This document shows positions 1-47,429 of a stretch of 64,000 nt of DNA, piece by piece. Origin of the DNA: Gammaproteobacteria bacterium (GTDB lineage Bacteria; Pseudomonadota; Gammaproteobacteria; SZUA-152); assembly GCA_011321815.1 (NCBI GenBank), contig DROS01000019.1, positions 4,118 to 68,117 on the forward strand, written 5' to 3'. The position numbers and the translations under genes are program-made. The first letter of the stretch is position 1. Each line of letters begins with the position of its first letter. The notes below the pieces were generated by a model. It was not told the DNA's origin and ran no database searches. It saw nothing but the letters and a program-made list of their open reading frames with translations.

Positions 1-106
1 TCAGTGTTTATGAACGTTTTTTTTCTTTTTGGCGCCATGCTCATGTACCTTTGTTGTACCTGTTGCTGTTTAGTGGTGTGGTGCATGTGATTGCTGTGCA
101 TATGTA

Positions 107-1741
107 TTGAATGGCATGTTTTTACCAAGGATAATTTTTGTTGTCGGGGTAATGCTGTTTATCGCTGTACTGAACTACGTGCAGGCGGGAATGCTGGATT
201 CGATGGAGAAGGCGTTAATGCCGGGTGAACTTTCCGCAGCTCATGCCCGGTTTGAAAATAATTGCACAGATTGCCACAAATTATTCGGACAGGAACAACA
301 AAACCGCTTATGCCTGGATTGTCATGATCATAAAAATATCGCTGGAGATATTAAAAACGGAAGGGGATATCACGGGCGTATTCCTGATGTAAAAAACAAG
401 GAATGTCGTGTTTGTCATTCAGAACACAAAGGACGGCAGTATTCCATCGTGCTACTGGATAAACAGGCTTTTGACCATCGTTTAACCGATTTTCCCCTGC
501 GTGGACGACATGGTGATGCACCCTGTCAGGCTTGCCATAAAAACAATAAAAAAACCGGTAAAGCAAAACCTTATCACCAGGCGCCGAAACAATGTGTCAA
601 GTGTCACAAACCTGATGATGCGCATGATGGACGCCTGGGAAAACAGTGCGGTAGTTGCCATACACAAATGCGCTGGCAGAATTTTCGCTTTGATCATGCG
701 ACGACCAAGTTCAAGTTAAAAGGAAAACACAAAGGTGTGGAATGCCGTTTATGTCACCCGCAAGAACGTTACAGTGGTGTGCCCGGAAAATGTGTTGCCT
801 GTCACAAAGGTGATGATAAACACAAAGGGCGCTATGGTAAAAAATGTCAGGACTGTCACTCAGTATCTGGCTGGGGAAGCCAGAAATTTGATCACAACAA
901 GGATACGGACTATCCGCTGAAGGGGCGACACATGTCGGTGACCTGCCAGCAGTGCCATCGCAGCGAAGGCTTTAAAGTCTATGTGAAGGAAAACACGAAG
1001 AAGAAAAATAAAAAATCAACTACGGATTGTTATGCCTGTCACCGTTTACAGGACGAACACAAAGGGCAATACGGGCGTAAATGTCACGCTTGCCACACGG
1101 TGAAAGCCTGGAATAAATCTACGTTTGACCATAAAAAAACAGATTTCCCGCTGAAGGGAAAACATAAAAAAGTGGCCTGCGGTGATTGTCACCCGGGTGT
1201 GCTTTATGAAGAAAATTTAAAAACGGACTGTTTTTCCTGCCATCGACAGGACGATGTACATCATGAAAAACAGGGGAAAAAATGCCAGGAATGTCACAAT
1301 GAAGAAGGTTGGCGGCATAACGTTAATTTTGATCATGATTTGGTGAAATTCCCATTATTGGGTGCCCATGTAGCACTGGCATGCGAAGAGTGCCACGATT
1401 CCGGAAGTTTTAAGGACACCAAAGCATCGTGTTTAGCGTGTCATAAGGGCAATGATGTACACGAGCGCAGTCTGGGAGCGCAATGTGATGTGTGTCATTA
1501 CGTGGGCGACTGGAAGGCCTGGGAGTTTGATCATGATAAACAGACAGATTTTGAGCTGGAAGGTAAACACAAAGGCATTGTCTGTAAGGCCTGCCACCGG
1601 GAACCTGTGAAGAACGAGATGGATATGCCCAATGATTGTCAGGATTGCCATTTGCAGGATGACGCACATGACGGAGAGTTTGGGCGTCGCTGCCAGCGTT
1701 GCCACAATACGGAATCTTTCTCTGAAATAAATATGCGGTAA
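107..1741 (+). CDS. Secreted multihaem c-type cytochrome with 21 CXXCH motifs, built from repeated c7-like triads (FDH..CxxCH / CxxCH / DxHDGxxGxxCxxCH). It has an N-terminal signal-anchor helix. The true start may be the ATG at 116.
   Basis: I counted 21 CXXCH motifs in the translation. They fall into a periodic three-haem pattern with extra conserved His, like polymerised cytochrome c7. The N-terminus MFLPRIIFVVGVMLFIAVLNYVQA is hydrophobic. Coordinate 107 is a TTG and an ATG lies at 116. Confidence 0.85.
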   Translation: MNGMFLPRIIFVVGVMLFIAVLNYVQAGMLDSMEKALMPGELSAAHARFENNCTDCHKLFGQEQQNRLCLDCHDHKNIAGDIKNGRGYHGRIPDVKNKECRVCHSEHKGRQYSIVLLDKQAFDHRLTDFPLRGRHGDAPCQACHKNNKKTGKAKPYHQAPKQCVKCHKPDDAHDGRLGKQCGSCHTQMRWQNFRFDHATTKFKLKGKHKGVECRLCHPQERYSGVPGKCVACHKGDDKHKGRYGKKCQDCHSVSGWGSQKFDHNKDTDYPLKGRHMSVTCQQCHRSEGFKVYVKENTKKKNKKSTTDCYACHRLQDEHKGQYGRKCHACHTVKAWNKSTFDHKKTDFPLKGKHKKVACGDCHPGVLYEENLKTDCFSCHRQDDVHHEKQGKKCQECHNEEGWRHNVNFDHDLVKFPLLGAHVALACEECHDSGSFKDTKASCLACHKGNDVHERSLGAQCDVCHYVGDWKAWEFDHDKQTDFELEGKHKGIVCKACHREPVKNEMDMPNDCQDCHLQDDAHDGEFGRRCQRCHNTESFSEINMR

Positions 1742-1789
1742 TTACTTGCCTGGTTGATATGCAGAATTGGAAACATTAAAGGTGACGGG

Positions 1790-4048
1790 ATGAAAATCAG
1801 GAATTGTTTAACACAGCATGTGTTGCTGCTGGTTACTTTGTGGTTGCTATTGCCTGCATTGAGCATGGCTGCGCCAAAACAGGATTTTGACCATTTTGAG
1901 ACGGGCTTTCCCTTGTCCGGCCAGCATCAGACGGTGCCTTGCGCCGCCTGTCACTTGCGTGGAGTCTTCAAGGGAACGCCATTGACCTGCAACGGTTGCC
2001 ATAATGGTTCCATTGCACCCGGCAAGCCGGATCGGCATATCGCCAACACAGAGACTTGTGATGATTGTCATACCATCTTTGCCTGGCAGGCTGCGGCTAT
2101 GGATCATTCGTCTGTGACAGGTTCATGTACGCAATGCCACAATACCCGTTTGTCTGCGCAGCATATTCAAACCCGTGCCCAGTGTGATGAATGTCATGGC
2201 ACAGTGGGTTGGTTGCCTGCGAGATTTACGCATGATGCTGTATCGAAAAATTGCAGCAATTGCCATAATGGGATAACAGCAAAGGGAAAATCCGCGAACC
2301 ACATTCAGACAGCGGAGCAGTGTGATGGCTGTCATAACACTGTGGCCTGGTTACCCGCCCGCTTTGATCACGGAAGTGCGACGGGTTCATGCAGTAGTTG
2401 CCATAATGGAACGACGGCGACCGGGAAACACAGTGCTCATGTGACAACTTCAGGCGAGTGCGAACTTTGCCATGCGACGACAGCCTGGTTGCCTGCAACC
2501 TTTAATCACAGCTCATTCAGTGGCGCCTGCAACAGCTGTCATAACGGCGTGACGGCTACCGGTAAATCCGGCCGTCATTTACAAACCACATCTGATTGTG
2601 TTGATTGCCACAGCACCAATGCCTGGTTACCGGCAAATTTCTCACATGATGGCATTACGGGAACATGCAGTTCTTGCCATGACGGTGGTATTACGTCGGG
2701 TAAATCAAGTAATCATATTCAAACCACTGGCGAATGCGACGTGTGTCACAGCACGAATGCCTGGTTACCCACCCGCTTTGATCACGGCAGTGCGACGGGT
2801 TCATGCAGTAGTTGCCACAATGGAACGACGGCGACCGGGAAACACAGTGCTCATGTGACGACTTCAGGCGAGTGTGAACTTTGCCACAGCACGAATGCCT
2901 GGTTACCCGCCCGTTTTGATCACGGCAGCGCGACGGGTTCATGCAGCAGTTGCCATAATGGAACGACGGCGACCGGGAAACACAGCGCCCATGTGACGAC
3001 TTCAGGCGAGTGTGAACTTTGCCACAGCACGAGTGCCTGGTTACCCGCCCGCTTTGATCACGGCAGTGCGACGGGTTCATGCAGTAGTTGCCATAATGGA
3101 ACGACGGCGACCGGGAAACACAGTGCTCATGTGACAACTTCAGGCGAGTGTGAACTTTGCCACACGACGACAGCCTGGTTGCCCGCAACTTTTGATCACA
3201 ACTCGTTCAATGGCGCCTGCAACAGCTGCCACAACGGTGTGACGGCTACCGGTAAATCCGGCCGTCATTTACAAACTACATCTGATTGTGTTGATTGCCA
3301 CAGCACCAATGCCTGGTTACCGGCAAATTTCTCACATGATGGTATTACCGGAAGGTGCAGCTCTTGTCATGATGGTGGTGTTGCGCTGGGCAAATCCGGC
3401 ACTCACATTCAAACCACTGGTGAGTGTGATGTCTGTCATGGTACCAATGCCTGGTTGCCTGCCCGCTTTGATCATGGCAGTGCGACAGGTTCATGCAGTA
3501 GTTGCCATAATGGAACGACGGCGACCGGGAAACACAATAACCATGTGACGACTTCCGGGGAATGTGGAGTTTGTCATACAACAACGGCGTGGTTGCCTGC
3601 AATCTTCGATCATGATTCATCAAGCGGCCTTTGTAACAGTTGCCACAATGGAGTGACGGCAACGGGCAAGGCCGATAATCATTTCATTTCATCCAGGCAA
3701 TGTGACGAATGCCATACTACACAGAGCTGGACATCGGTACGCTATAACCATGTGGCGATCGGCTACCCAGGTGGCCATAATGGTTTGTCATGCAATGGAT
3801 GTCACAAAGGAAACAGCGAATCTTCAGTCTGGGAAAATCCTGGCTACAAACCTGATTGTGCAGGTTGCCATGCGGATGACTGGGAAAGTGATGAACATAA
3901 AAAAACGAAAAATCCACGCACCATTTTTTATACCATCAGTGAATTGCGTGATTGTTCATCATCATGTCATGAGTACACGGACAACACGTTCACGACTATT
4001 AAAAAGAGACGTAACAGAGAACATAGCCCGAATGGCGGAGATTTTTAA
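1790..4048 (+). CDS. Secreted giant multihaem c-type cytochrome with about 29 CXXCH plus one CX3CH. It is made of about 14 tandem 46-aa di-haem modules. The signal peptide is MKIRNCLTQHVLLLVTLWLLLPALSMA.
   Basis: The ORF track starts at a TTG at 1754. An ATG at 1790 is preceded by AGGTGA and followed by a classic Sec signal peptide. The translation is a string of modules WLPxxF[DNS]H-x5-CxxCHNGxTAxGKxxxH[IV]xTxxxCxxCHxTxA. Confidence 0.85.
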   Translation: MKIRNCLTQHVLLLVTLWLLLPALSMAAPKQDFDHFETGFPLSGQHQTVPCAACHLRGVFKGTPLTCNGCHNGSIAPGKPDRHIANTETCDDCHTIFAWQAAAMDHSSVTGSCTQCHNTRLSAQHIQTRAQCDECHGTVGWLPARFTHDAVSKNCSNCHNGITAKGKSANHIQTAEQCDGCHNTVAWLPARFDHGSATGSCSSCHNGTTATGKHSAHVTTSGECELCHATTAWLPATFNHSSFSGACNSCHNGVTATGKSGRHLQTTSDCVDCHSTNAWLPANFSHDGITGTCSSCHDGGITSGKSSNHIQTTGECDVCHSTNAWLPTRFDHGSATGSCSSCHNGTTATGKHSAHVTTSGECELCHSTNAWLPARFDHGSATGSCSSCHNGTTATGKHSAHVTTSGECELCHSTSAWLPARFDHGSATGSCSSCHNGTTATGKHSAHVTTSGECELCHTTTAWLPATFDHNSFNGACNSCHNGVTATGKSGRHLQTTSDCVDCHSTNAWLPANFSHDGITGRCSSCHDGGVALGKSGTHIQTTGECDVCHGTNAWLPARFDHGSATGSCSSCHNGTTATGKHNNHVTTSGECGVCHTTTAWLPAIFDHDSSSGLCNSCHNGVTATGKADNHFISSRQCDECHTTQSWTSVRYNHVAIGYPGGHNGLSCNGCHKGNSESSVWENPGYKPDCAGCHADDWESDEHKKTKNPRTIFYTISELRDCSSSCHEYTDNTFTTIKKRRNREHSPNGGDF
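2348..3727. repeat. Intragenic tandem array of ten 138-bp units, each encoding one 46-aa di-haem module. There are three variants, A, B and C. Units at 2762-2899, 2900-3037 and 3038-3175 are near-identical. The 414-bp block A-B-C at 2348-2761 is duplicated at 3038-3451.
   Basis: Direct reading of the sequence. The string tggttacccgcccgctttgatcacggcagtgcgacgggttcatgcagtagttgccataatggaacgacggcgaccgggaaacacagtgctcatgtgac recurs with only a few substitutions. Confidence 0.8.
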
Positions 4049-4079
4049 GCTTGTCCAAAACTGTAAAAAATAGAATGCA

Positions 4080-6170
4080 ATGAGAGGTTTTCGGTTTTGG
4101 TGTCAGGTGATGGGAGTATACTTCGCAGTATCTTCCCAGGTCTGGGCATTGCCAAATCAATCACTGGAAAGTATTGAATATCTGACTCATCAAGGGATGG
4201 CTGCGATAGAAATTGGTTTTGCCCAACCAGTGATTTACATGTCGAATTTTCCGCTGGAATCTGGTGCAACGCTACAAATTTTTATCGGGCCGCGCACTGC
4301 TGTGGATGTCGATGTGGATAAGCTTCCTTATACCCAGGCGATGCGCGCACCAGATTCCGGTGAGATACCGCTGCGGCAAGTGACATTCCATATTAACGAA
4401 GCCGGTGAAACCTCCATTGTTGTGGATTTTAAGCGGGTGGTGAATTTTACGATATCGGCTGGTCGTCGTTTTAACACGTTGATGATTGTTTTTCCGGAAT
4501 TGAGAATCACGCAGGCGGTACCGTTGAAAAAAGCACGTACTGTGGAGATAGTTGACAGCAAAGCTTTCAGGTTGCTGGTGTCGGGGCGCAAGGCTCTCAA
4601 GCAGCATAAAAACAAAATGGCTATTCGTATTTTTACCGGGATGCTGGAATTGCCCGAAAGCCCGGAACGACAGGAGGCAATGGAATTGTTGGGAGTGGCA
4701 CGGGAACGCAACCAGCAAAAGGCACATGCCAGGGCCATGTATCAGGAATACCTGAAGCAATACCCAAAGAGTGAAGGCGCGGCACGGGTCAAACAGCGGT
4801 TACAGGATTTATTGCATGCACAGTTAAAACCCCGGGCGAAACTGAAACCCATCAAGAAATCAAAGGACAGAAAAACTACTTCACGTATCTATGGCAGCTT
4901 TGCCCAGTATTATTATCATGGTGAAAATAGCGTTGAAAATGCCGGTAGCTCGGTGGATCAATCCTTGTTATTGAATCAATTGTCTGTTAATTGGCGTATT
5001 CGTAATGCCGACTATGATATTCGCAACTTTGTTTACACCAACCAGAGTTATGACTTTTCCAGTGAGACAGGTAAGGCAGTGACTCTGGAGACGGCGTATA
5101 GTCAATTTAAAAACAGCCGCTGGGGTTTTTCGGGTCGTGCTGGTCGGCAAACCGGCTCCGGCGGTGGCGTGTTGGGTAAGTTTGACGGATTACGCGCCAG
5201 TTATGATGCTACACGAAGAATCGCTGTGAATGCTGTGGCGGGCTATCCTGTCAATATCAGTGACAAACGCAGTATTCAATCACAAAAACCTTTTTGGGGA
5301 ATCGGCTTTGAATGGGATGGTGAGGGCAAAGGTGTTGATATCCTACCTTATTATATCCAACAGAAGGTAGATGGCATTATTGACCGTGAGGCTATTGGTA
5401 GCGAATTCAGATTTTTTCATGAACAAGGGAATTTTTACGGACTTATTGACTATGATATTCATTATGCGGACCTGAATATTTATCTTTTTCGTGGCCAATA
5501 TAATTGGCGAAAAAATACGATTTTTAACCTGAATCTTGATTATCGAAACAGCCCTTTATTGTTTACCTCTCATGCCTTGATTGGGCGTACGGATGTGTCG
5601 AGCATTGGTGAGTTACTGAATGTGCATAGTGAACGCAGTATTAATGAATTAGCAGAAAGCCGTGTGGGTGATTCAAGTACATTTTCATTGGGCGTGAGCC
5701 ATACCTTAAGTACACGTTATCAACTTAATGCAGACCTGACATTTGCCAGACAGAATTTTATCATCGACGGTGTCACGCCGGGCGTTTTAATCAGTGAGAA
5801 TGACCAGCAAATTTATTTTTCCGGTCAGCTTATTGCCAACAAATGGTTTAATGATCGTGATACCAGTGTGCTGGGTATGCGTCTCTCGCAGACCGGTAGC
5901 TATGATGAACTTTCGTTATCCGCCTCTAACCGGTTACTGTTGAACAATAAATGGAAATTCGACACCCGAATGCGCGTTGATTTACGTCAAGGTAATTCAG
6001 GTGAAGATTTAACCAGATACCGTCCTTCAGTGAAATGGAATTTCCGTCACAATCAGACGATGTATTACGAAACGGAAATTGGTGTGGAATGGTGGCGTTA
6101 TGGTGGCGATTCCAATAATCCTGATTTTCGACGGTTGTTTGCTAACGTAGGTTATCGCTGGGATTTTTGA
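4080..6170 (+). CDS. Outer-membrane beta-barrel protein of 696 aa. The N-terminal ~250 aa form a periplasmic, partly helical TPR-like region. The C-terminal part is a large beta-barrel ending in the beta-signal ...NVGYRWDF. It is a candidate porin or translocon partner of the two cytochromes.
   Basis: The signal peptide is MRGFRFWCQVMGVYFAVSSQVWA. The C-terminal 450 aa are rich in alternating aromatic/hydrophilic dyads and in Asn, Tyr and Gly. The protein ends in a terminal Phe with an x-Y-x-W-x-F pattern. The gene lies immediately downstream of the cytochromes, 32 nt away. Confidence 0.6.
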   Translation: MRGFRFWCQVMGVYFAVSSQVWALPNQSLESIEYLTHQGMAAIEIGFAQPVIYMSNFPLESGATLQIFIGPRTAVDVDVDKLPYTQAMRAPDSGEIPLRQVTFHINEAGETSIVVDFKRVVNFTISAGRRFNTLMIVFPELRITQAVPLKKARTVEIVDSKAFRLLVSGRKALKQHKNKMAIRIFTGMLELPESPERQEAMELLGVARERNQQKAHARAMYQEYLKQYPKSEGAARVKQRLQDLLHAQLKPRAKLKPIKKSKDRKTTSRIYGSFAQYYYHGENSVENAGSSVDQSLLLNQLSVNWRIRNADYDIRNFVYTNQSYDFSSETGKAVTLETAYSQFKNSRWGFSGRAGRQTGSGGGVLGKFDGLRASYDATRRIAVNAVAGYPVNISDKRSIQSQKPFWGIGFEWDGEGKGVDILPYYIQQKVDGIIDREAIGSEFRFFHEQGNFYGLIDYDIHYADLNIYLFRGQYNWRKNTIFNLNLDYRNSPLLFTSHALIGRTDVSSIGELLNVHSERSINELAESRVGDSSTFSLGVSHTLSTRYQLNADLTFARQNFIIDGVTPGVLISENDQQIYFSGQLIANKWFNDRDTSVLGMRLSQTGSYDELSLSASNRLLLNNKWKFDTRMRVDLRQGNSGEDLTRYRPSVKWNFRHNQTMYYETEIGVEWWRYGGDSNNPDFRRLFANVGYRWDF

Positions 6171-7143
6171 AGTGCCCGATATTTTTGAAACTTGCATTTA
6201 CTTGGAATATGGCGATATGACATTCAGTTTTGACGGATGGTTTGTTTTTCCCAATAGCCGGAATTCGTGAAGCGAGGTGGTAACCGGTGCCTGACTGTGA
6301 GCGGGAATGAAACCCACGAGTTCTTGACCATCACAGGTTTTTTCTGCCTGGATGATGATTCCTGGCGTTTCTTCATTGTTACTTTTGTTGATGTGTAATG
6401 CGTATTGTGGAATCTCTATTTCCAGTGGCGTGCTTAATGTCTCATTTCCTGACTTCAGCAAAAATGTAGCTTTTCCTTCCATGAGGTCTTGTTCTGTCGC
6501 CGTACGCCCGGTAACAAACTTGCAACTATTCAGGTCAGGCCATTTCATTTGTATTCTCTTTGTAGATAGGGATGTGCATGAAATAATTTTTGGGTTGTTT
6601 GGATACACTGTAGATTTTTTACCAAGGGCCAACAAGCGCTGAATACCACTATTGATATGGGGGTTTATGGCTGTGCGGTTCAGTATTTGGTTTTTTATCT
6701 TATATTTTTATGTCTTCAGATATTTCATGCGTTAAATGCCATTAGTGCTGGTAATACAGGCATTATTTTCAATTTTATGTTTCCCGTCATCCTTGGGGTT
6801 GACTTTCAGCACTTGTTGGTTAGTCAGGGTTATTGCTGGAATTGTTAGGGTGATTCCTGTTGGATTGTATTTGCTATTGCGTACTCTTTTTCATCATTTT
6901 TCACTTTAACCTAAATTAATCAGGTGAACGTGCATGAAATAATCTGTGCATTCCGCCTTGTCTTTTTATTCCTGGCCGAACGATTGAAACTGCTCGGCCA
7001 GTACAAAATCCAGCGTCATATTTGTTCAAATTATTCCGTGCATGCGCCTAAAGAGTGTACAGGGTCGGACGATAACGGATTTGCTGACGGTGCAGCTTTG
7101 CACTTTGGCAATTAATTTCAAAACGCTTTGAGGGGACAGATTT

Positions 7144-7338
7144 GTGAACAAACAGGAGTATGGTCGTGCGATTGGTTCGCACCTGGGAAAACCCATTTAT
7201 GAATCTTTTAAAGATCAGGGTGTGACGTATATTTTTGATCGGGTGGCGCAGTGTGATACGGAAGGTTGTCCACTGGACCAGGTCAAACCGGGTGAGTTGC
7301 TGGTGAATCCGGGTTTGATTTACAGACAGGCATCCTGA
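7144..7338 (+). CDS. Small hypothetical protein of 64 aa with a GTG start.
   Basis: The ORF has AGGGGA seven nt upstream and a hairpin downstream. I recognise no domain. Confidence 0.25.
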   Translation: MNKQEYGRAIGSHLGKPIYESFKDQGVTYIFDRVAQCDTEGCPLDQVKPGELLVNPGLIYRQAS

Positions 7339-7363
7339 TTTTAAAAAAACAACAACAATGAAA

Positions 7364-7399
7364 GGCCGGCCACGGTTTTTTCGTGGTCGGCGGCAGCTT
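7364..7399. terminator. Hairpin (ccggccacg / gtttttt / cgtggtcgg) between two convergent genes. It could act as a terminator in either direction.
   Basis: The inverted repeat is visible in the sequence. The T-run is weak, so the call is tentative. Confidence 0.3.
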
Positions 7400-7421
7400 T
7401 TCAATCAGGTTTTTTCGTGAT

Positions 7422-8078
7422 TTACTTGGCAAGTTGCATCAGTTGATTTGCTTTTTCTTTACTCAACCACTTCCAGGGTAACGGAATCAGTCCGGGTACC
7501 TGTCGGCAGTATTCCTCATAGACTTCTCCGTAATGCGCAACCAGTTTGCGTTCCTCCATATGTGAGCCGATCACAAAATAAGCGCTGATCAGGCTGTATA
7601 CAACCAGTTGGACAAGATGCAGGTCTTGCGTCCACAAAATAACCAAAAAAAAGGAATACCAGGGATGGCGCACAAAACGGTGCAGGGTAGAGATGTGCAG
7701 GGCGTCGGGGTCAGTGCTGTCTGTGTGCCGGTTGCGCCACTGGGTGATTCCCAGAAAGACTCCGTTATCGTAGGATTTCAGTGACCAGACAAAGCCAAGT
7801 ATGGCTGCAACCATTAACCCTTTCATCAACCAGCCTGCCAGTCCCGGCCATTGCCAGACCAATGGCCCCGGATTCTGGTGCATAAACCAGAGCAGGGGGA
7901 TCAGCAGGATCACCGCGAGAATATTATATGCAAGCCGATAGGCGGGCATTAATCCGGGCCATGTGTGCTGTACCCAACGTTTGAACCACAATGATGCCAG
8001 CAGGGAATGCAGTACAAAATAGGCGATGAAGCTAATCCCCAGAGGAACCAGGGACCAGAGGATGTCGTTATCTGTCAT
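7422..8078 (-). CDS. Integral-membrane methyltransferase of the ICMT/PEMT (isoprenylcysteine carboxyl / phospholipid methyltransferase) family.
   Basis: The protein has multiple transmembrane helices. Its C-terminal motif is RHPWYSFF...EE..L...YG..Y..Y...VP..IP, typical of this family. I placed the start at an internal Met (MTDNDILW); the ORF track extends to 8150. Confidence 0.55.
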   Translation of the reverse strand: MTDNDILWSLVPLGISFIAYFVLHSLLASLWFKRWVQHTWPGLMPAYRLAYNILAVILLIPLLWFMHQNPGPLVWQWPGLAGWLMKGLMVAAILGFVWSLKSYDNGVFLGITQWRNRHTDSTDPDALHISTLHRFVRHPWYSFFLVILWTQDLHLVQLVVYSLISAYFVIGSHMEERKLVAHYGEVYEEYCRQVPGLIPLPWKWLSKEKANQLMQLAK

Positions 8079-8304
8079 AAGTGTAGATATTTGATTTTTG
8101 TGAGCAATAGTCGATACTTGGCGTGGTCGCCGCTTCAGAATGACAAGCACATATACCTGTCGCGTTCGAAGTTTGGGCCTTTAGAGGGTGCCCTGTTTAT
8201 TTTCGTGCAGCTATGAAATGACGAGGGTATGCAATAAAGCCGAAATCTCAAATGCTACGGGTATAGTATACAAACAACAGCATAACAGTATAAAGGTGAA
8301 TACA

Positions 8305-13237: not shown

Positions 13238-13330
13238 TAAACGCAAAGGACGCTGAGACGCAAAGAACACAAAGTTTTTTGTTCTTTTTCTTTGCGCCCT
13301 CTGCGCCTTTGCGAACTTTGCGTTAAATAC
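13238..13330. repeat. Intergenic palindromic element, copy c (leuB-asd spacer). Its ends are TAAACGCAAAGGACGCTGAGACGCAAAG and CTTTGCGCCCTCTGCGCCTTTGCGAACTTTGCGTTAAATAC.
   Basis: Visible in the sequence. It shares termini with copies a and b. Confidence 0.6.
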
Positions 13331-13360
13331 TCAATATCAAAAAAAGCAGGTAATGGAAAA

Positions 13361-14473
13361 ATGAAAAAAGTCGGATTAATCGGTTGGCGCGGCATGGTGG
13401 GTTCAGTGCTCATGCAACGTATGCGCGATGAGAAAGATTTTGACCTCATCGAGCCGGTGTTTTTTACCACGTCACAAACCGGACAACCAGGCCCGGACAT
13501 CGGTAAAGATGTACCGTTATTAAAGGATGCAAAATCCATTAATGAGCTGCAAGCAATGGATGTCATCATTACCTGTCAGGGCGGCGGTTATACTGAAGAT
13601 ATCTATCCGCAGTTACGCAAGGCGGGGTGGGGGGGGTACTGGATTGATGCCGCTTCTACGCTGCGCATGAAAGATGATGCCATTATTGTGCTTGATCCGG
13701 TGAATCTCGATGTTATCAAAAACGGCCTGGCCAACGGCACTAAAACCTTTGTCGGTGGCAACTGCACTGTAAGCCTGATGTTAATGGCCATTGGCGGGCT
13801 GTTTGAAAATGATCTGGTGGAATGGATTTCACCCATGACTTATCAGGCGGCTTCTGGTGCTGGCGCGCAGAACATGCGGGAACTGATCCGGCAGATGGGT
13901 GCGATCAATGATTCGGTCAAAGACCTTAACGAAGACCCTGCTGCCGTAATACTGGACATCGACAAAACACTGGCCGGTTTTTTGCGTTCTGACAACTACC
14001 CCAAAGACAACTGGGGAGTGCCGTTGGCGGGCAGTCTGATCCCCTGGCTGGACTCCCCGCTGGACAGTGGTCAGACCCGCGAGGAATGGAAAGCCGAGGT
14101 GGAGACCAACAAAATTCTTGGCCGTACTGATAACGTCATTCCCGTCGACGGTATCTGTGTGCGTATTGGCGCCATGCGTTGCCACAGCCAGGCATTGACC
14201 ATCAAATTGAAGAAAGATGCACCACTGGATGAAATTTATCATATGCTGGCACAGGCAAACGATTGGGTGAAAGTCGTACCCAATGATCGTGAGGCCACGG
14301 TGAAAGATCTGACTCCTGCCGCCGTTACCGGTACGTTGACAGTACCCGTGGGGCGGTTGCGCAAACTCACCATGGGTAATGATTATCTATCTGCCTTTAC
14401 GGTGGGCGATCAGTTGTTATGGGGTGCAGCGGAACCTTTACGTCGTATGTTGCGGCTGTTGTTGGCAACATGA
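13361..14473 (+). CDS. asd: Aspartate-semialdehyde dehydrogenase.
   Basis: The N-terminus [21 protein letters not shown] matches Asd, and the protein is about 371 aa from the ATG at 13361. The ORF track starts earlier, inside the repeat element. Confidence 0.9.
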
Positions 14474-14536
14474 AGGAACGCGCACGTTTCTTAGTAAACT
14501 CGATGTTAATGGCATAAATATTGGATCATAAAAATT

Positions 14537-15571
14537 GTGAGTAAAACGTTTAATGTGGCTGTAGTGGGCGCAACCGGTCTGGTGGGTGAGGCCCTTGTAT
14601 CATTTCTGGAGGAACGTGATTTTCCTGTAGGTGATTTTTTTCCATTGGCAAGCATGCGTACAGCCGGGAAAAAGGTGGCGCTGGGCGGTAAGTATCACAC
14701 CGTGAAGGATGTGGCGGATTTTGATTTTTCACAAGCTGATATTGTCGTGTTTTGCGCGAGTGATGAGGTTTCTGCGGAATATGTACCGCGCGCTACTGCG
14801 GCGGGTTGTATGGTGGTTGATACCTCCGCACAGTTTGTGGATGACGATGATGTGCCGCTGGTGATTCCTGAAGTGAATCCACAGGCAATTACTGGTTATG
14901 TTCATCGTAAGGGGCGGCGCAATATTATTTCCAGTCCTGACAGTTCAACAATACAAATGCTGGTTGCTCTCAAACCCATTTATGATGTTGTTGGCATTGA
15001 GCGTATAAATGTGGTTAGTTATCAGGCAGTGACAGCATCAGGCAAATCCGGGATGGATGAACTTGCCAGCCAGACAATTGCCCTGTTGAATATGCAGGAC
15101 GCTAAACGTAAAATGTTCCCGCAGCAGATTGCCTTTAATGTTTTACCGCAAGTCACGGTTGCTGAAGAAAATGGTTACTTGTCCTGCGAAATGGAAATGC
15201 TGCGGGCAACGCAAAAAATTCTTGCTGATGGTGACATTTTTATCAACCCGACTACGGTGCAGGCCCCCGTGTTTTTCGGCCACTCCCAGGCAGTGCATGT
15301 GGAGACTGGCGCAAAACTGGGTGTAGACGAGGCGCGGGATCTGTTACGACAGGCCCCAGGGGTGGAGCTGCTGGATGATGATGAGCCCGGCAATTCGCCC
15401 ACGGCTGTCACACATGCGGCGGGTGAGGACGCAGTATTTGTAGGTCGTGTCCGTGAAGATATTTCTCATCCTTGTGGTTTAAATTTGTGGGTAGTTGCCG
15501 ATAATGTGCGCAAAGGGGCGGCGCTGAATTGTGTGCAAATCCTTGAGCTGTTGGTAAAAGAGGGCTTGTAA
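14537..15571 (+). CDS. usg: Asd paralogue, an aspartate-semialdehyde dehydrogenase-like protein of the USG-1 family.
   Basis: It has the NAD-binding N-terminus VAVVGATGLVGEALV and a GTG start. It sits in the asd - usg - fimV - truA position seen in pseudomonads. Confidence 0.75.
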   Translation: MSKTFNVAVVGATGLVGEALVSFLEERDFPVGDFFPLASMRTAGKKVALGGKYHTVKDVADFDFSQADIVVFCASDEVSAEYVPRATAAGCMVVDTSAQFVDDDDVPLVIPEVNPQAITGYVHRKGRRNIISSPDSSTIQMLVALKPIYDVVGIERINVVSYQAVTASGKSGMDELASQTIALLNMQDAKRKMFPQQIAFNVLPQVTVAEENGYLSCEMEMLRATQKILADGDIFINPTTVQAPVFFGHSQAVHVETGAKLGVDEARDLLRQAPGVELLDDDEPGNSPTAVTHAAGEDAVFVGRVREDISHPCGLNLWVVADNVRKGAALNCVQILELLVKEGL

Positions 15572-32630: not shown

Positions 32631-33851
32631 CTAATGCGTAGTAATGCGTGATTTGATTGCCTGCGCCATATCTGTATTGCCAATCTCTTTGTACAGTGTA
32701 GCGAGTTCAGTTAAAACGATATCTAATACAGGCTGTGTTTCACTTTTTCCATCATCGAGTATTTCGGCGGCTTTTTTATACAAGGGCAAAGCCTGCGCAA
32801 AAAGCGCGATTTTCCGCTGTGTGGTATCTGCCAGGGCGGCAGAATTATTATTGGTTGGTATGATATTGGACTCGAAAGATGTCTGATCCTGCTCTTCGAT
32901 ACGTGCCTGGGCGTGATAAATATTGGCCAGGGTATACATCAGCAATGCCAATTGCGGGTCTGATGAGCCCAGTATATGTTGCGCAATATTCAAGGCTTCT
33001 TCATAGGCATGGCTGGCAGGGCTGTATTCACCTTGTTCGAGATAGCTTGTGCCCAGACTGATGAGTGTCTGGGCAACCTCTTCATGTTGGACGCCAAAAA
33101 CAGATTTTTTGAAAACAAGCATACGTTGCAGGATGTTTATGGCTTTGTTGTGTTTTCCTTGTGCACGGTAAATGCCACTCAGATTGCTGAGTGCATTGCC
33201 GACATAAGGATGTGTAGGCCCCACACTTGCCGACCATAAGCTGATTGCCTGCTGGTAAAAAGTTGCTGCCTGTTCATATTTATGTTGGCTTTCGTACAGC
33301 ACCGCCAGATTGTAAGTTGATTGTGCAATTGCGGGATCATCTGCATGGAAGGCATTTTTGCGAATATTCAAGGCCTGTTGATGATACTTTTCAGATAGCT
33401 CGGGGCGTTGTAATTCAAAATAAACATTGCCGAGATTTGTCATGATCACCGCAAGATCGGGGTGATTTTGGCTGAGTTGCTCTTCAAGTATACGCAATGC
33501 TTCCTGTAAACGGTCTTCCGCTTTGTGCAGGTGTCCTAATGTTTGGTTGATAATGCCGAGTTTTAATAATGCATCAGCAGTATTTACATCATTTGGGCCA
33601 AAGTTCTTGTTGGCAATATCGTGAGCACGCTGGGCGGCAAAAAGCGCATTCTGGTAATCACCTTCTTCATAATAACGGATGAAATAGCTGGTCAGGTCGA
33701 TCCAAATGGTTTCAGCCAGCTCTGTTGTTTCATGGAAAGAACGAATGTTTGTTTCTTGTTCTGTTGTTGAATTAAGTGTCGGGTTGACAGAAGCAAAGAG
33801 AATGCCTGGTGCAAGCAGAAAAAAAATAAAATAAAATGTACACTGTTTCAT
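32631..33851 (-). CDS. Secreted tetratricopeptide-repeat protein.
   Basis: The signal peptide is MKQCTFYFIFFLLAPGILFASV. Repeated TPR units follow (A..Y..A..Y..G..). Confidence 0.7.
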   Translation of the reverse strand: MKQCTFYFIFFLLAPGILFASVNPTLNSTTEQETNIRSFHETTELAETIWIDLTSYFIRYYEEGDYQNALFAAQRAHDIANKNFGPNDVNTADALLKLGIINQTLGHLHKAEDRLQEALRILEEQLSQNHPDLAVIMTNLGNVYFELQRPELSEKYHQQALNIRKNAFHADDPAIAQSTYNLAVLYESQHKYEQAATFYQQAISLWSASVGPTHPYVGNALSNLSGIYRAQGKHNKAINILQRMLVFKKSVFGVQHEEVAQTLISLGTSYLEQGEYSPASHAYEEALNIAQHILGSSDPQLALLMYTLANIYHAQARIEEQDQTSFESNIIPTNNNSAALADTTQRKIALFAQALPLYKKAAEILDDGKSETQPVLDIVLTELATLYKEIGNTDMAQAIKSRITTH

Positions 33852-34301
33852 CCGCAGGTGAATGAGAGCCGGGCGTGCATATTTTTCCCAAGGGTTATAC
33901 ATTTTACTGTGCCTTTGTATCCCGGGTATAACATGTTTCGTGATTGTTAATCCGGTCAGTTTGAACGATGCCGTAAAAATGCATCGCTTATCCTGCATAT
34001 CGGCCAACGCAAGGAGCGCTTTAGCACAGCCTCTATGGCGAATGGTTGAGAGAGCGCATTAACTTTTTGATAAGGAACGTGCACGTTTCTAATACACATC
34101 ATTTCGCCTCGCCATGAAGAAAATATGGTGCACACTTATAACCTCAATCCCAAACGCTGCGGGTATATGTGGCCACTTTTAAAGCGGGAAATTATTTTTT
34201 CTGTTTATCAACAGGATAGGATGGCTATTCAGCAGGTGACAAAAATCAGGCAGGCATCTGTGTTTTGAGGTTCAATGTTCTGCGGTAGATTACGAGGTCG
34301 T

Positions 34302-37300
34302 TTATTGCGGCTTACCCGTTTCAGTGGATATTTTTTGAAGTTTGGCAAGGCTGGTTTCTGTGCGCAGCACGAGACCGTTGGCATTCTGTTGTTTGGCAAT
34401 GGCCAGGGATTCATTGAAATATTGTTCTGCAAGGCTGTGATTGTCAGCGCCGTTTTCCATGGCAAAATCACCCTTGATACGCAGTAGCTCCGCAGTAAAA
34501 AACCCCTCGCCAGTAAAAGCCGTTTCGCGCAGCGCAGACTCGATAGTCAGACGGGCTTTATCGGTTTTTCCTGCATCACGCAAAAGCTCTGCCAGAAGGG
34601 CCTGAAAATAAGAGCGGGCGAGTCGGTTACCGGATTTTTCGTAATCGCGCAGCGCTTGTTGAAACCGTTCACAAATACTGTCGGCCGGTTGTTCTGTTGA
34701 TTCCGCCCAAGCCTTCAGCATACGGCCTGTCGCTGCCCAGAATGAAAAACCATAGGTTTCACTCAGTGCTATTTGTGCATCAGCATAGCGGTAAGTCGCT
34801 TTATGGTCACCACAAAGCTGGGACAGGGTACCCATGAAATGCAGGGCATAGGCCTGACTGAATGGGTGTGCAAGGCGTTTGGCCAAATCCAGCGCGGCCT
34901 GGCCGCGCGTCAGTGCCTGGTCTGTTTTCCCAAGCAACCATAAAACGCATGCAGCATTGGCAAGAGAAGCCACCTGTGCATTCTGGCTATAGGCCACCAG
35001 TGTTGCCTGTGGGTGAGCCTGCCCGGTTTGCGGTTCGATGTGACGTTCAAGATTTTCCAATGCCTCGGAAAAATTACCTTTCCAAAAAAGCGTGGTGCCT
35101 ATGGCGCGTTTTGCTTCCAGTAAAAACTCCGGAATGTTGGATTGTGCAGCATATTGCTGTAGCTCATCGGCAAGCTTGTGTGCTTTTTCCAGCTCTGCGC
35201 GGACAATATAAAATTCCCACAAGCCACATAATACGGGAAACACAATACTGGTGTCCGTGATGTTTTGGCACAGGCTGTAAGCACGGGCATAGGCTTTTTC
35301 CACCTCGGGTGCGGCATAGCCTTTGCTCATCATGCTGGCCAGCCCCAGGGTGGTTTGCAAGGCCAGCTCGTGCCTATTTAACCCGGGTGATTCGGGCATT
35401 TTTTTAATCAGGGCGAGGCCCTTTTTGAGATGTTCGATGGCTTCAATATTGGCAGAGTGTTGAATCGCGGAATTGCCTGCGGATAACCAGTAATACAATG
35501 CATCTCCATTGTTTCCGGCTTCAGTATAATGATGGGCAAGAATCTCCGGGTTATCGGTAACAAGCTGTGGGAATTTTTCCTTGATAAGTGTGGAAATACG
35601 TTGGTGGTATTTTTGACGGGTACGCTTTAATAATGATTGATAAGCGGCTTCCCGTACCAGGGCATGCTGAAAGCGGTAATGTGCTTTGGGTGGCTTGCCG
35701 TTCTGGACAAATAATTCGGCATTGATAAGCCGGCTCATACTGGATTGCAGGTTGGGCTCACTTTGCAAAGCAGCGGCGAGCAATAGTTCGTAGGTGAATT
35801 CACGTCCCAGTGTGGCGCTTAATTGTGCCAGCTCTTTGTCATCACCGAGGTTGTCCAGGCGTGACATGAGCGAATCCTGTAGTGTGCTGGGGATTTCCAG
35901 TTGGGACATATGGTGTCCAAGCTCAAAATGATCCTCTTTTTCCACCAGCAGCGAAGACCGTAGCACGGCATTGGTCAGTTCCTCGACAAAAAAGGGAATG
36001 CCGTCTGTTTTGTTGGTGATTTCGGCAAACACTTCCAAGGGGAGCGTTTTCCCCCGGCATAGCTGCCTGATCATACTGCCTGATTGTTTTTGGGTAAGGC
36101 GATTGAGCGTAATCTGTGTCAGGCAGGTGCGATTTTTCCAGGGGGGAGCGAAGTCGTTGCGGAAGGTGATAAGGGTAAAAATGTTGCTTAGCCCAGGCTG
36201 ATCAACGAGTAATGACAACAGCTCAATAGTGGAAGGGTCTATCCATTGCAAATCCTCCACGACCAGCAACACAAAACGTTGTTGGGCGACAGCCTGTAAA
36301 ATATCAATGAGCACATCAAAGGTTTGCTGCTTTTTTTGCTGCGGAGTGGAGTTTGTTCCGGCAGCGTCGGCAATTGTTTTTCCTGGAAGGGAAATTGATA
36401 ACAGTTCAGCTAAAACAGGGGTAACTGTTTTGGGTTCCATACCCAGAGTAGCGATGGTTTTTTCGATACGCGAAATCTGTTTTTGCGGGGGATCATCTTC
36501 GGTCAGGCCGATAATGCGCCTTGCCATGTCCATAATGGGATAAAGAAAGCTGTTTTTATAGTAGAGGGCGCCATAGCAATCCAGAAAAAGACAATTTTCA
36601 TTTTCCACTTTTTCGCAAACCATCTGCACCATGCGTGTTTTTCCCAGTCCGGGTTCACCGCTGAGCAGAACAACCTGCCCAACCCCTTTGCGTGCCTGAT
36701 TGAGTCTTTCTATTAACAGACCGGTTTCCTGATCCCGTCCGATAAGCATGGCATGGGCAGGGCGTTTGGTTTTGATAAATCGGTTTTTGTTGCCACGGAT
36801 CTGTTGTACGTGAAAAAGGTTGAAAGGGTGGGAGAAGCCTTTCAACATGTGGGTACCCAGTGTTTGACATTCAAAACGCTGACCTAATAACTGATGTGTG
36901 CTGCCACTGATCACCACCGTGTTTTCACTGGCGTAGCCCTGAAGTCGTGCAGCAATATTGGGCGTTTCGCCCAAGGCCATTGAACGTGTGTCGCCACCGC
37001 CGATTTCACCGATAACCACCAGGCCGGTGTGAATGCCAATACGGACGGCAAGTTGTATGTCACCGCTTTGTTGTGTGGAGTAAACCTGTTTCGGGACATG
37101 TTTGACCATTTCCAGCGCGGCGAAGGTGGCGCGCTGTGCATCGTCTTCATGTGCGTGGGGGTAACCAAAATAAACCAGTATCCCATCACCGAGGTATTGC
37201 GCAACATAACCACCATAATCATTGACAATGTCATTGCAGGTGTTGCGGTAGTCGCGCATGATATCGCGCAGTTCTTCCGGGTCAATGCGCTCAGAAAGCG

Positions 37301-37562: not shown

Positions 37563-37661
37563 GGCAGAATTTTCCTGGTTTGCCGGTATATGCGGAAGGA
37601 GGATACCCATCCCCTCTGTGTTCAGCAAGGCGAGTGGATAAAGAATAAAACAGGAGAAAAC

Positions 37662-47019: not shown

Positions 47020-47429
47020 AAACGGGGTGTGAAGTATTGCGCAAGGGTTTGCTCATTTTGTCTGTCACCGTGCCACTGGCCGGCCAGGCGTCTGTGGTGG
47101 ATGAGCGGCAGGCCGCCTATCGGGCCAGTGGGGCAGGGCCATTCAGTGCGCAAAAAGGCGGGCAGTTATGGCAGCGGGAAGTGGTGAGCACGAAAGACGG
47201 TCGTGCCCGCAGTTGTACCACGTGTCATGGCAATGATTTGCGCAGCACTGGCAAACACACCAAAACCGGCAAGGTCATCGAGCCGCTTAGTCCGGCAGTC
47301 AATGCTGAACGTCTGAGCAGCGCCAAAAAAATCCGCAAATGGTTTAAACGTAATTGCAAATGGACCTGGGGGCGTGAATGCACGCCGCAGGAAAAAGGCG
47401 ATCTGTTGAGCTTTATTCGTCATCAATAA
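47016..47429 (+). CDS. DUF1924-type periplasmic monohaem c-type cytochrome.
   Basis: It has a signal peptide and a single CTTCHG motif. Its start overlaps the upstream stop (ATGA). Confidence 0.65.
   Translation: MKTGCEVLRKGLLILSVTVPLAGQASVVDERQAAYRASGAGPFSAQKGGQLWQREVVSTKDGRARSCTTCHGNDLRSTGKHTKTGKVIEPLSPAVNAERLSSAKKIRKWFKRNCKWTWGRECTPQEKGDLLSFIRHQ

Follow-up and report, generated by a model that had tools for sequence, protein, structure and literature searches.

The first 6.2 kb of the 64,000-nt window analysed here (contig DROS01000019.1; the host is an uncultured gammaproteobacterium with Ectothiorhodospiraceae-like MAGs as its nearest named relatives) carry four genes on the + strand, in the order: a gene for an inner-membrane protein (IMP), of which only the 3' end is present (3..110; the last 35 codons and the stop, cut by the window edge); cytA (ORF1; 107..1741; 544 aa), encoding a 21-haem cytochrome of the PCC3 'periplasmic' type; cytB (ORF2; 1754..4048; 764 aa), encoding a 30-haem cytochrome of the PCC3 'extracellular' type; and the gene for a PCC3 outer-membrane barrel protein (ORF3; 4080..6170; 696 aa). 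An earlier sequence-only reading had described the three complete ORFs as tightly spaced and uniformly oriented, and this is what we find: the stop codon of the IMP gene (108-110) overlaps the start of cytA or lies directly against it, cytA and cytB are 12-48 nt apart, and 31 nt separate cytB from the barrel gene. The locus is flanked by LysR-leuCDB and other housekeeping genes, has an only modestly lower GC3, and showed no tRNA or mobility genes. The downstream stretch at 6.2-7.1 kb, described as AT-rich and gene-poor, is indeed AT-rich (GC 0.39-0.43) but holds a 145-aa ORF on the minus strand that is conserved in sister contigs. Similarly, the suggestion that the cluster belongs to an accessory island continuing upstream was right as to the continuation, which is the IMP gene; a recent accessory island was rejected, as the synteny is kept among relatives down to ca. 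74% barrel identity.

Followed upstream through the sister contig L001, whose DNA is 96-97% identical to the window, the cluster continues and its fourth PCC3 gene is that of the IMP. The frame-3 translation of the window start reads SVYERFFSFWRHAHVPLLYLLLFSGVVHVIAVHMY* and matches the C-terminus of the L001 protein; positions 3-110 encode its fifth transmembrane segment (TM5) with the second WX3HX13H motif (WRHAHVPLLYLLLFSGVVH). The full-length IMP (L001:5067-5969) has 300 aa and five hydrophobic segments that are predicted to span the membrane, a topology with which the helices of the AF2 model agree. It carries the WX3HX13H motif twice (W102-H120 and W275-H293), one SGXXG motif (SGVIG143), and a basic helical insert of ca. 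110 aa between TM4 and TM5. The ferric-reductase domain PF01794 gave no match in this protein, and its fold weakly resembles those of SpNOX, NOX5, and CybB. From the paired histidines on TM3 and TM5 we infer that the IMP binds haem b at two sites: H106/H279 and H120/H293 would hold one haem near each face of the membrane.

The product of cytA, for which ATG 116 is the probable start, begins with a signal peptide or anchor. It contains exactly 21 CXXCH motifs spaced in seven groups of three, and it matches Pfam Cytochrome_C7 (3e-27) over 10 stretches; motif count, spacing, and Pfam match together bear out the c7-like triads noted earlier. The protein is rich in Lys, His, Asp, and Gly, uses 25.9 aa per haem, and divides into seven tri-haem modules of 67-87 aa. 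Homologues with 21 haems (rarely 22-24) occupy the same position in at least 48 loci.

In cytB, 29 CXXCH motifs and one CX3CH (CSSSCH, residue 734) make 30 haem sites. By our own estimate a random protein of this size would hold ca. 0.001 haem motifs, so that the motifs of cytA and cytB lie far beyond chance; ORF3 has no CXXCH at all. The likely true start is ATG 1790, with AAAGGTGA just before it, and a Sec signal peptide is predicted, while no lipobox or known secretion signal was found. The protein spends 25.5 aa per haem and is dominated by Thr (12.3%), Ser (10.9%), Gly (10.1%), and Ala (8.1%). Its haems recur every 23 aa within a repeat of 46 aa: self-identity is 0.60 at an offset of 46 residues versus 0.23 at 23, and reaches 0.66 at 230. 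At the DNA level, TRF reports a 138-nt period with 6.1 copies (2345-3186), belonging to a tandem array on the + strand at 2345..3321 whose 138-nt unit encodes one di-haem unit of 46 aa and which has a 276-nt higher-order repeat. Motif count, self-identity, and TRF thus agree with the ca. 30 haems and 46-aa di-haem repeats of the first reading. The array is the expandable part of cytB; an indel within it whose length is not a multiple of three (window 3044-3074, compared with L001) breaks the gene in two in the L001 assembly. Behind the array, residues 640-764 (3671..4045) form a conserved C-terminal cap that reads CAGCH...HKK...YTISELRDCSSSCH (the conserved CX3CH site)...GGDF-COOH. This cap is present in the extracellular-type cytochromes of 71 loci, always at the extreme C-terminus and at any haem count; most of those shown end in F or W. 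Homologues in the position of cytB have 14-90 haems (median 28).

The barrel protein starts with a signal peptide (residues 1-23), ends in an outer-membrane-type C-terminus (...GYRWDF), and was modelled by AF2 with a mean pLDDT of 84.7. The model comprises an N-terminal β-rich domain (residues 29-138; 4164..4493; delimited by AF2 strands), a TPR-like helical, presumably periplasmic, domain (residues 161-249; 4560..4826), and a β-barrel of ca. 22 strands (residues 267-696; 4878..6167), confirming the extra N-terminal TPR-like region seen earlier. A helical insert (residues 496-527) comes after strand 13 and hence on the extracellular side. In many lineages the β-domain is a separate gene of ca. 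150 aa between the extracellular cytochrome and the barrel, and BLAST matches to the query 's147' fall either on such a separate ORF or on the N-terminus of the barrel ORF.

The sequence-only reading considered this composition unusual and the haem counts far higher than in PCC3-type clusters. Neither holds: 21 plus 30 haems, two cytochromes of different architecture, and a large barrel are the published pattern of PCC3, as described by He, Barco, Emerson & Roden (2017, PMC5566968) and known from Sideroxydans lithotrophicus ES-1 (Slit_1446-1449), Leptothrix cholodnii SP-6, and the Riftia endosymbiont. Median haem numbers in PCC3 are 21 for the periplasmic and 34 for the extracellular cytochromes, the latter being rich in Thr, Ser, Gly, and Ala (PMC5566968); Hoover et al. 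(2023, PMC9900912) give 21, 24, or 27 and 10-35, respectively. The order in ES-1 (IMP, cyt_p, cyt_e, porin; PMC11429942) equals that in the window, which supports the assignment, and the four genes (IMP, periplasmic cytochrome, extracellular cytochrome, barrel) are co-directional as PCC3 clusters are. Component by component the likeness continues. A PCC3 IMP has ca. 300 aa and five TM segments, with SGXXG in TM4 and one WX3HX13H each in TM3 and TM5, and so has ours (the full protein taken from L001). A PCC3 periplasmic cytochrome has ca. 21 haems (21, 24, or 27), a low number of residues per haem, and repeats of ca. 66 aa, and cytA conforms to the shared layout of 21 haems in seven repeats of ca. 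66-87 aa (26 aa per haem). In both cases the second cytochrome is of low complexity, rich in Thr, Ser, Ala, and Gly, with short haem repeats (a period of ca. 23 aa, ca. 26 aa per haem) and a large, variable haem number, and the large barrel is likewise shared. We see no essential difference, except that the host here is an uncultured gammaproteobacterium and that the β-domain is fused to the barrel instead of being a separate gene. The match to the ES-1 and L. cholodnii clusters was made with their published descriptions. Betaproteobacterial clusters, including Burkholderiaceae, were compared directly, with identities of 36-37% (IMP), 39-41% (periplasmic cytochrome), 28-46% (extracellular cytochrome), and 28% (barrel); a Burkholderiaceae MAG in which all components are homologous has a 24-haem periplasmic cytochrome, the count reported for L. 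cholodnii.

Homologues were drawn from match lists of the closest 120 relatives, and the survey was based on 51 loci, each representing a species and extending at least 5 kb upstream of the barrel homologue. A multihaem cytochrome lies upstream on the same strand in all 51, two cytochromes in 48, and an ORF with the IMP motifs in 45; the first cytochrome has 21 haems in nearly all loci. The hosts belong to Gammaproteobacteria, Alphaproteobacteria, Nitrospinaceae, Nitrospirota, Omnitrophota, Binatia, and Desulfuromonadales. The original proposal of a candidate trans-envelope electron-transfer module is supported, and so is the association of the barrel with the cytochromes (51/51).

Two further genes, absent from the published definition of PCC3, are conserved beside it. 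Both lie outside the window, and their presence in the host is deduced from the 96-97%-identical contig. The first is divergent and next to the IMP gene; its product, FerFAD, is by predicted domains and topology a membrane-anchored, cytoplasm-facing flavoprotein with 2x[4Fe-4S] and an FNR/TrxR-like part. FerFAD occurs in 39 of the 47 loci with an IMP, in four different arrangements, and reciprocally PCC3 genes are present in 43 of the 49 FerFAD-seeded metagenome loci with enough flank. It was not found within 2.6-4.8 kb upstream of the IMP in L016, L018, L052, and L054, nor within 9 kb in L086. With a median identity of 61%, FerFAD is better conserved than the PCC3 proteins (33-44%). The second gene encodes a secreted ankyrin/Sel1 protein that accompanies PCC3 in both search directions and may serve as a periplasmic scaffold or chaperone. 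The link between FerFAD and PCC3 seems not to have been reported before, and the co-occurrence suggests that PCC3 is connected to cytoplasmic NAD(P)H in a manner resembling NOX or Hmc/Tmc systems. As in NOX/FRE and MsrQ-Fre, the IMP has two putative bis-His haem-b sites on TM3 and TM5, whose histidines are spaced by 13 residues, and would be partnered by an NAD(P)H flavoprotein of the cytoplasm; NOX/FRE proteins have six TM segments, however, versus five in the IMP, and the flavoprotein is here separate, membrane-anchored, and Fe-S-containing. Hmc/Tmc of sulfate reducers follow the inner-membrane logic that we presume for our locus (a periplasmic multihaem cytochrome c, a membrane haem-b protein, and a cytoplasm-facing Fe-S protein), but their cytoplasmic partner is HdrD-like and not an FNR/TrxR-like flavoprotein with a ferredoxin domain, and only our locus has an outer-membrane module. 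Scores with the HmcA and TmcA models were far below their cut-offs, and there is no sequence relationship.

We think it highly probable that positions 3-6170 make up the distal portion of a PCC3-type operon of four genes, which would most likely act as a continuous trans-envelope haem wire with a probable cytoplasmic partner. The assignment draws directly on the genes present, the number of their haem sites, the anatomy of the repeats, the folds of the domains, and the co-occurrence of the genes; the localisation of the cytochromes, their assembly into a complex, and electron flow through PCC3 are what these data lead us to expect. In such a wire, the IMP would carry electrons across the cytoplasmic membrane as a di-haem-b protein, probably fed or drained on the cytoplasmic side by FerFAD. 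The chain of seven c7-type modules in cytA would span the periplasm; the barrel of ca. 22 strands, kept in place by the TPR and β-domains on its periplasmic side, would let a cytochrome cross the outer membrane; and cytB, with its conserved end caps and expandable di-haem array, would carry the wire on to the cell surface or past it, a location that is based on literature predictions for its homologues.

As to direction, thermodynamics and the NAD(P)H-type partner incline us slightly to outward flow, in which reducing equivalents from the cytoplasm would reach an acceptor outside the cell. The opposite direction is possible, if the more doubtful of the two: the same PCC3 would oxidise Fe(II), minerals, or another solid donor outside the cell, and the electrons would pass through the IMP to the quinone pool, FerFAD being irrelevant, regulatory, or biogenetic. 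The quinone route is needed here since Fe(II) to NAD(P)+ is, by our own reasoning, strongly uphill. Inward flow is the original model of He et al. (2017, PMC5566968). It agrees with the presence of PCC3 in known Fe(II) oxidisers, with Sideroxydans CL21, whose cells up-regulated the IMP gene belonging to one of the PCC3 copies when oxidising iron, and with the many survey hosts from lithoautotroph-type lineages of redox interfaces. Yet most PCC3 hosts are not known Fe(II) oxidisers, both PCC3 clusters of ES-1 are down-regulated on Fe(II) (PMC8788666), and a quinone-only model leaves the two-way linkage to an NAD(P)H/Fe-S flavoprotein unexplained. On magnetite, the ES-1 PCC3 proteins were scarce or undetected (PMC8788666, PMC11429942); this and the down-regulation on Fe(II) also weigh against the haem-wire reading as a whole.

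A capacitor function, raised for PCC3 by Hoover et al. (PMC9900912), would make the cytochromes an electron store of the periplasm or envelope, or a periplasmic wire, with none of them exposed and the barrel an anchor or unrelated channel. The 51 closely spaced haems could indeed hold many electrons, and cytB has neither lipobox nor recognised secretion signal; still, we hold this improbable, given that in every testable locus the cytochromes come with a barrel homologue, whose gene is invariably the last. Moreover, the second cytochrome varies widely in haem number while its end caps are conserved, which suits an external wire of extendable reach more than a store inside a periplasm whose width is fixed.

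It is very unlikely that the locus belongs to the MtrCAB/MtoAB/PioAB family as a divergent member. The concept is shared, namely an outer-membrane barrel that ensheathes a multihaem cytochrome of the periplasm, which may touch an outer cytochrome, and cytB matches domain II/IV of MtrC/MtrF (PF22113; 48.7 bits, cut-off 30). Those systems, however, consist of decahaem cytochromes (DmsE/MtrA and MtrC families), an MtrB of 26 strands, a lipoprotein MtrC exported by T2SS, and the quinol dehydrogenase CymA. Against the DmsE/MtrA model (TIGR03508, cut-off 192 bits) cytA and cytB score 25.6 and 80.7 bits; and the barrel, of ca. 22 strands, was rejected as an MtrB/PioB member. For the outer decahaem lipoproteins MtrC and OmcA the picture is mixed, the PF22113 match of cytB pointing towards them and its 30 haems, missing lipobox, and other repeat architecture pointing away. 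The resemblance to MtrAB and PioAB drawn in the first reading is thus one of functional analogy only. The idea that the cytochromes merely adjoin a generic TPR-porin of the PgaA/BcsC/AlgK-AlgE type, exporting exopolysaccharides or adhesins, can practically be discarded, as the barrel gave no match to the PgaA, BcsC, or AlgE HMMs, no synthase or polysaccharide partner genes were found nearby, it has ca. 22 strands instead of 16-18, and its homologues have cytochrome neighbours in 51 of 51 loci; this outcome, on which the first reading had made its case depend, supports the porin-cytochrome interpretation.

The Geobacter Pcc/Ext systems are equally distant, with no homology to their GSU2203-type decahaem, ExtN, or OmaB/OmcB-type cytochromes: the NCBIfam GSU2203 model scores 15 and 50 bits (cut-off 325) and ExtN 22.9 (cut-off 200). 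With the polymeric c7 cytochromes of Geobacter (dodecahaem GSU1996, 'nanowire_3heme') cytA stays below the cut-off of TIGR04257 (14.9 versus 40 bits), and it differs from them in having seven modules instead of four and in sitting in a porin/IMP operon. Both are nonetheless built from tandem c7-like tri-haem modules, which in cytA would form a linear haem chain.

The locus at the edge of the window is a typical PCC3 (porin-cytochrome c) cluster, cut by that edge, and thus belongs to an already known, predicted kind of system. PCC3 was described by He et al. 2017 (PMC5566968) as a four-protein cluster consisting of a porin, two multihaem cytochromes, and an inner-membrane protein (IMP). In that description the 'periplasmic' cytochrome has a median of 21 haems; the 'extracellular' one is Thr/Ser/Ala/Gly-rich, consists of repeats, and has a median haem number of 34 and a maximum of 85; and the IMP, about 300 aa long, has five TM helices, of which TM3 and TM5 each carry WX3HX13H and TM4 carries SGXXG. 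A supplementary figure of the same paper shows, for the Riftia symbiont, a 21-haem protein made up of seven repeats of ~66 aa and a 39-haem protein whose period is ~23 aa, both at 26 aa per haem. Hoover et al. 2023 (PMC9900912) count 21, 24 or 27 haems in the periplasmic subunit, against 10-35 in the extracellular one. In Sideroxydans lithotrophicus ES-1 the gene order is IMP, cyt_p, cyt_e, porin (PMC11429942). The window genes follow the ES-1 order, and their products, compared by description, fit all published PCC3 descriptors (composition, repeats, and haem counts). The fourth gene is truncated: window positions 3-110 (frame 3) encode SVYERFFSFWRHAHVPLLYLLLFSGVVHVIAVHMY*. On the sister metagenome contig L001, whose DNA is 96-97% identical to that of the window, these residues end a 300-aa ORF situated immediately before the 21-haem gene. 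This ORF has five hydrophobic segments together with W102-H120, SGVIG143, and W275-H293, i.e. all PCC3 IMP hallmarks, and its AlphaFold2 helices are consistent with a five-segment topology.

The three-gene module proposed by the sequence-only reading was recovered exactly, with all genes on the forward strand: ORF1 (107-1741; 544 aa, 21 CXXCH), ORF2 (1754-4048; 764 aa, 29 CXXCH plus one CX3CH), and ORF3 (4080-6170; 696 aa, devoid of CXXCH). The junctions are short or overlapping, in keeping with the tight spacing that it had noted. Its description of the two cytochromes was also accurate. The c7-like triads of ORF1 appear as seven groups of three haem sites in modules of 67-87 aa, with Pfam Cytochrome_C7 matching over ten stretches (3e-27). 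ORF2 is composed of 23-aa units with one haem each, of two alternating types, giving the 46-aa di-haem repeat (self-identity 0.60 at offset 46 vs 0.23 at offset 23), on which a higher-order duplication of 230 aa is superimposed (self-identity 0.66). Both proteins have ~26 residues per haem and hydrophobic, signal-like N-termini, and neither has a lipobox; ORF1 is rich in Lys/His/Asp/Gly and ORF2 in Thr/Ser/Gly/Ala. Judged from sequence, the true start of ORF2 is probably the ATG at 1790, which is preceded by a AAAGGTGA motif. Neither cytochrome matched a PDB sequence in phmmer searches at E ≤ 1e-3.

A barrel-alignment scan of one genome per GTDB species returned 288 relatives, of which the best 80 were retained; cytochrome linkage was examined wherever no less than 5 kb of sequence precedes the barrel, which was the case at 51 loci. 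At every one of them a multihaem cytochrome is encoded upstream on the same strand, so that the barrel does belong with the cytochromes as had been supposed; two cytochromes are present at 48 loci and an ORF with IMP motifs at 45. The first cytochrome has 21 haems in nearly all loci, and the second has 13-90. Complete second cytochromes (n=50) have a median of 28 haems (IQR 20-37.5) at 25.8 aa per haem, so the 30 haems in the window are typical. Two earlier claims, namely an unusual composition and haem counts that are far higher, are therefore withdrawn, the window matching the published PCC3 pattern in genes, order, and haem numbers; the reading as a candidate extracellular electron-transfer conduit holds as such. 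Among the best 80 of 288, most hosts are MAGs of Gammaproteobacteria (Ectothiorhodospiraceae, Sedimenticolaceae, Chromatiales, Thiohalomonadales, Steroidobacteraceae, and Methylomonas), the others being Alphaproteobacteria, Nitrospinaceae, Nitrospirota, Leptospirillia, Omnitrophota, Binatia, and Desulfuromonadales. Relatives of the 21-haem protein number more than 4,100. This protein also led to two betaproteobacterial loci in which every component is homologous to the window cluster. In the locus of a Burkholderiaceae MAG the first cytochrome has 24 haems, the count reported for Leptothrix cholodnii.

The second cytochrome retains its N-terminal ~90 residues in 66 loci and its C-terminal ~125 residues in 71. 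The C-terminal cap (residues 640-764, window 3671-4045) is conserved across phyla, its non-canonical CX3CH haem site included, and forms the very end of the chain in proteins with 14 haems as in those with 90. Its elements are, in order, CAGCH, HKK, YT[VI]SELRDC-x-G-S-CH (containing the CX3CH site), and a final G-G-[FW], whose terminal aromatic residue resembles the C-terminal signal of outer-membrane proteins. Because both caps are conserved whatever the haem count, we regard the protein as an expandable di-haem array between two conserved end-pieces; the array is a tandem repeat at the DNA level too (138-nt period by TRF). A possible role of the C-terminal cap is docking to the barrel. In L001 (7592-9969) a length difference in the array that is not a multiple of three, relative to window 3044-3074, splits the cytochrome into two overlapping ORFs, most likely through an assembly error in the 138-nt repeats; a pseudogene is possible. 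The largest second cytochromes carry 90 haem motifs in 2,155 aa (L027:3440-9904, an Omnitrophota MAG), 74 (L032:2583-8066), and 63 (L037:3814-8556), the first exceeding the 85-haem record given by He et al. 2017 (PMC5566968).

HMM searches with ORF3 gave only weak TPR, YbgF, and BamD matches, at residues ~160-240. Its AlphaFold2 model (alignment of 24 homologues, mean pLDDT 84.7) comprises an N-terminal signal helix, a β-rich domain (residues 29-138, window 4164-4493), five TPR-like helices (residues 161-249), and a barrel (residues 267-696) with 23 DSSP strand segments. We read these as 22 strands, since the barrel has to begin and end in the periplasm and one strand shows a kink; the helical insert after strand 13 therefore falls on the extracellular side. 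The C-terminus, GYRWDF, is a typical outer-membrane β-signal. As modelled, ORF3 is predicted to be a large barrel of generic fold, not a member of MtrB/PioB and not recognisably PgaA or BcsC. MtrB-like, PgaA/BcsC-like, and Geobacter Pcc-like identities were ruled out by HMM and fold tests. The family amounts to 2,937 clusters at 50% identity with E ≤ 1e-3 (1,246 at E ≤ 1e-30), and tblastn of the barrel against plasmids gave no match. The β-domain, fused here, is a separate gene of ~150 aa in many lineages (L032:8053-8493 and about 40 other loci), which points to fission or fusion; other homologues, of ~800 aa, have a SPOR peptidoglycan-binding domain (PF05036) in its place. Seven PCC3 barrel/IMP proteins (P0036, P0049, P0053, P0056, P0182, P0199, and P0223) bear, in NCBI, the label of the Nostocales cyanobacterium Kaarinaea lacus. 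Since they are 40-60% identical to gammaproteobacterial ones and their contigs are short, bacterial contamination of that assembly is their probable source.

Just after the barrel, on the reverse strand, lies a small conserved hypothetical gene (6198-6635; 145 aa) that is kept in sister contigs and has no family match. It is followed by ~0.8 kb of AT-rich non-coding DNA (6640-7420, GC 0.39) with no ORF, Rfam match, or clear terminator, and then, in order, by genes for a membrane protein, a small OMP, a LysR regulator, leuCDB, asd, a FimV/HubP-like protein, trpB, purF, dxs, parE, and parC. These flanks (LysR-leuCDB downstream, HIT and FerFAD genes upstream) are kept in relatives with only 74-75% barrel identity. 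Scans of the window for tRNAs and Rfam families were empty, there are no mobility genes around the locus, and in window 1-8300 no promoter or terminator scored higher than in shuffled sequence. The three genes have a GC3 of 0.44-0.49, only modestly below the 0.52-0.68 of the housekeeping neighbours. With the synteny with LysR-leuCDB and the upstream genes conserved, and with neither mobility genes nor tRNAs, the notion of an accessory island is rejected. A recent island is not supported; an old acquisition of the locus is possible.

Clustering the ORFs of all loci brought out two further families, FerFAD and Ank, represented upstream of the window at L001:3586-4917 (reverse strand) and L001:285-3173 (forward strand), respectively. 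Behind one N-terminal TM helix and a basic stretch, FerFAD (~440 aa) carries a ferredoxin domain (2x[4Fe-4S]) and then a flavoprotein domain of TrxR/YpdA/FNR-like type, with no CxxC outside the Fe-S domain; because the basic stretch follows the TM helix, its bulk should face the cytoplasm (positive-inside rule). Ank proteins (510-960 aa) have a signal peptide, Sel1 repeats, and many ankyrin repeats. FerFAD is present in 39 of the 47 species-representative loci with IMP, where it is mostly divergent and directly upstream of the IMP gene (31 loci, gap typically about 250-300 bp), otherwise co-directional upstream (2), downstream of the barrel (5), or in another layout (1); four of the eight loci that lack it have less than 0.7 kb of upstream sequence. 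The Burkholderiaceae locus also carries it. With a median identity of 61%, FerFAD is the most conserved protein of the neighbourhood (21-haem protein 44%, IMP 36%, barrel 33%). In the reciprocal test, a FerFAD-alignment scan of metagenome contigs gave 575 relatives; among the best 80, PCC3 genes were found at 43 of the 49 loci whose relevant side extends over 2 kb or more. Where both flanks are good (n=32), PCC3 genes occur at 29 and Ank at 25. FerFAD and Ank hence accompany PCC3 across phyla in both search directions (loci L005-L084, L085, and L087-L166). The HIT-family gene beside FerFAD was rejected as a partner, being conserved in the closest relatives only (3 loci). FerFAD and Ank are mentioned neither by He et al. 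2017 (PMC5566968) nor in the Gallionellaceae pangenome text on PCC3 (PMC9900912), one Table 1 entry of which may correspond to the FerFAD family. In the PCC3 literature searched neither protein is described, and none of the papers searched brings PCC3 or multihaem/porin/EET together with ankyrin.

PCC3 is still called functionally unverified in the 2025-2026 literature. The parts list, haem-site counts, folds, and gene linkage were observed, whereas all electron flow is inferred. In the original model PCC3 is a four-gene conduit that may oxidise Fe(II) and feed the quinone pool; this is possible, but gets no help from ES-1, in which PCC3 was down-regulated on Fe(II) (PMC8788666) and its proteins were scarce or undetected on magnetite (PMC11429942). 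In the most likely mechanism, the IMP would bind two haems b, one close to either face of the membrane, through its His pairs H106/H279 and H120/H293. Fold matches of the IMP include E. coli cytochrome b561 CybB, Dcytb, bacterial NOX, and cytochrome b6, all too weak to choose between FRD, cytochrome b561, and other di-haem bundles. The 21-haem c7 polymer, argued to be long enough to span the periplasm (PMC5566968, PMC9900912), would bridge it; the barrel would let a cytochrome cross the outer membrane, and the repeat cytochrome would carry the wire further outward. The FerFAD linkage suggests that the cytoplasmic end meets NAD(P)(H) via FAD and two Fe-S clusters, for which the closest analogies are the two-component logic of MsrQ-Fre/NOX and, in sulfate reducers, the Hmc/Tmc complexes. 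As a tentative and on balance doubtful reading, PCC3 might be the outer portion of a module of six genes that FerFAD connects to cytoplasmic NAD(P)H, with quinones bypassed. The inner-membrane step would then be a two-component NOX- or Hmc/Tmc-like device, in which FerFAD would oxidise NAD(P)H and pass electrons to the di-haem-b IMP, and the Ank solenoid would scaffold the periplasmic wire. The six-gene module would thereby join cytoplasmic pyridine nucleotides directly to extracellular acceptors, or to low-potential donors. Electron transfer from NAD(P)H to an extracellular acceptor is downhill, and that from Fe(II) to NAD(P)+ uphill.

Proteins of PCC3 clusters rank among the richest in haem known, and the clusters occur widely at redox interfaces; nine years after they were described, their function is still a proposed one. 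The window cluster, one more typical member in an uncultured gammaproteobacterium, is not itself a discovery; the association of FerFAD and Ank with PCC3 is a by-product that may matter. If they are true partners, they hint at the way in which metabolism connects to PCC3 and probably at the direction that electrons take, and the use of PCC3 genes as 'iron-oxidation markers' in metagenomes would need a new interpretation. The six-gene module, if true, would be widespread, given the more than 1,200 clusters at 50% identity of the barrel family at E ≤ 1e-30.

A few other features deserve mention. In the Burkholderiaceae MAG (L085:17294-21668), genes for CcmF, a CcmG-like redoxin, and CcmH/CcmI directly follow the PCC3 cluster and resemble a maturation set dedicated to cytochrome c. 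Elsewhere in the window, the genes with haem motifs are just two adjacent small ORFs at 47001-48032 (forward strand; 142 and 199 aa between stop codons) with one and two CXXCH, which by their motifs look like small c-type cytochromes. Aspartate-semialdehyde dehydrogenase paralogues of the gamma and asd_B types lie side by side at 13292-15571 (forward strand). Finally, the region 32631-37682 (reverse strand) looks like a signalling or defence-like module: it encodes a 1,126-aa protein that unites adenylate/guanylate cyclase and STAND-type AAA ATPase domains with a double zinc ribbon and TPRs, adjoining a 458-aa TPR_12 protein.
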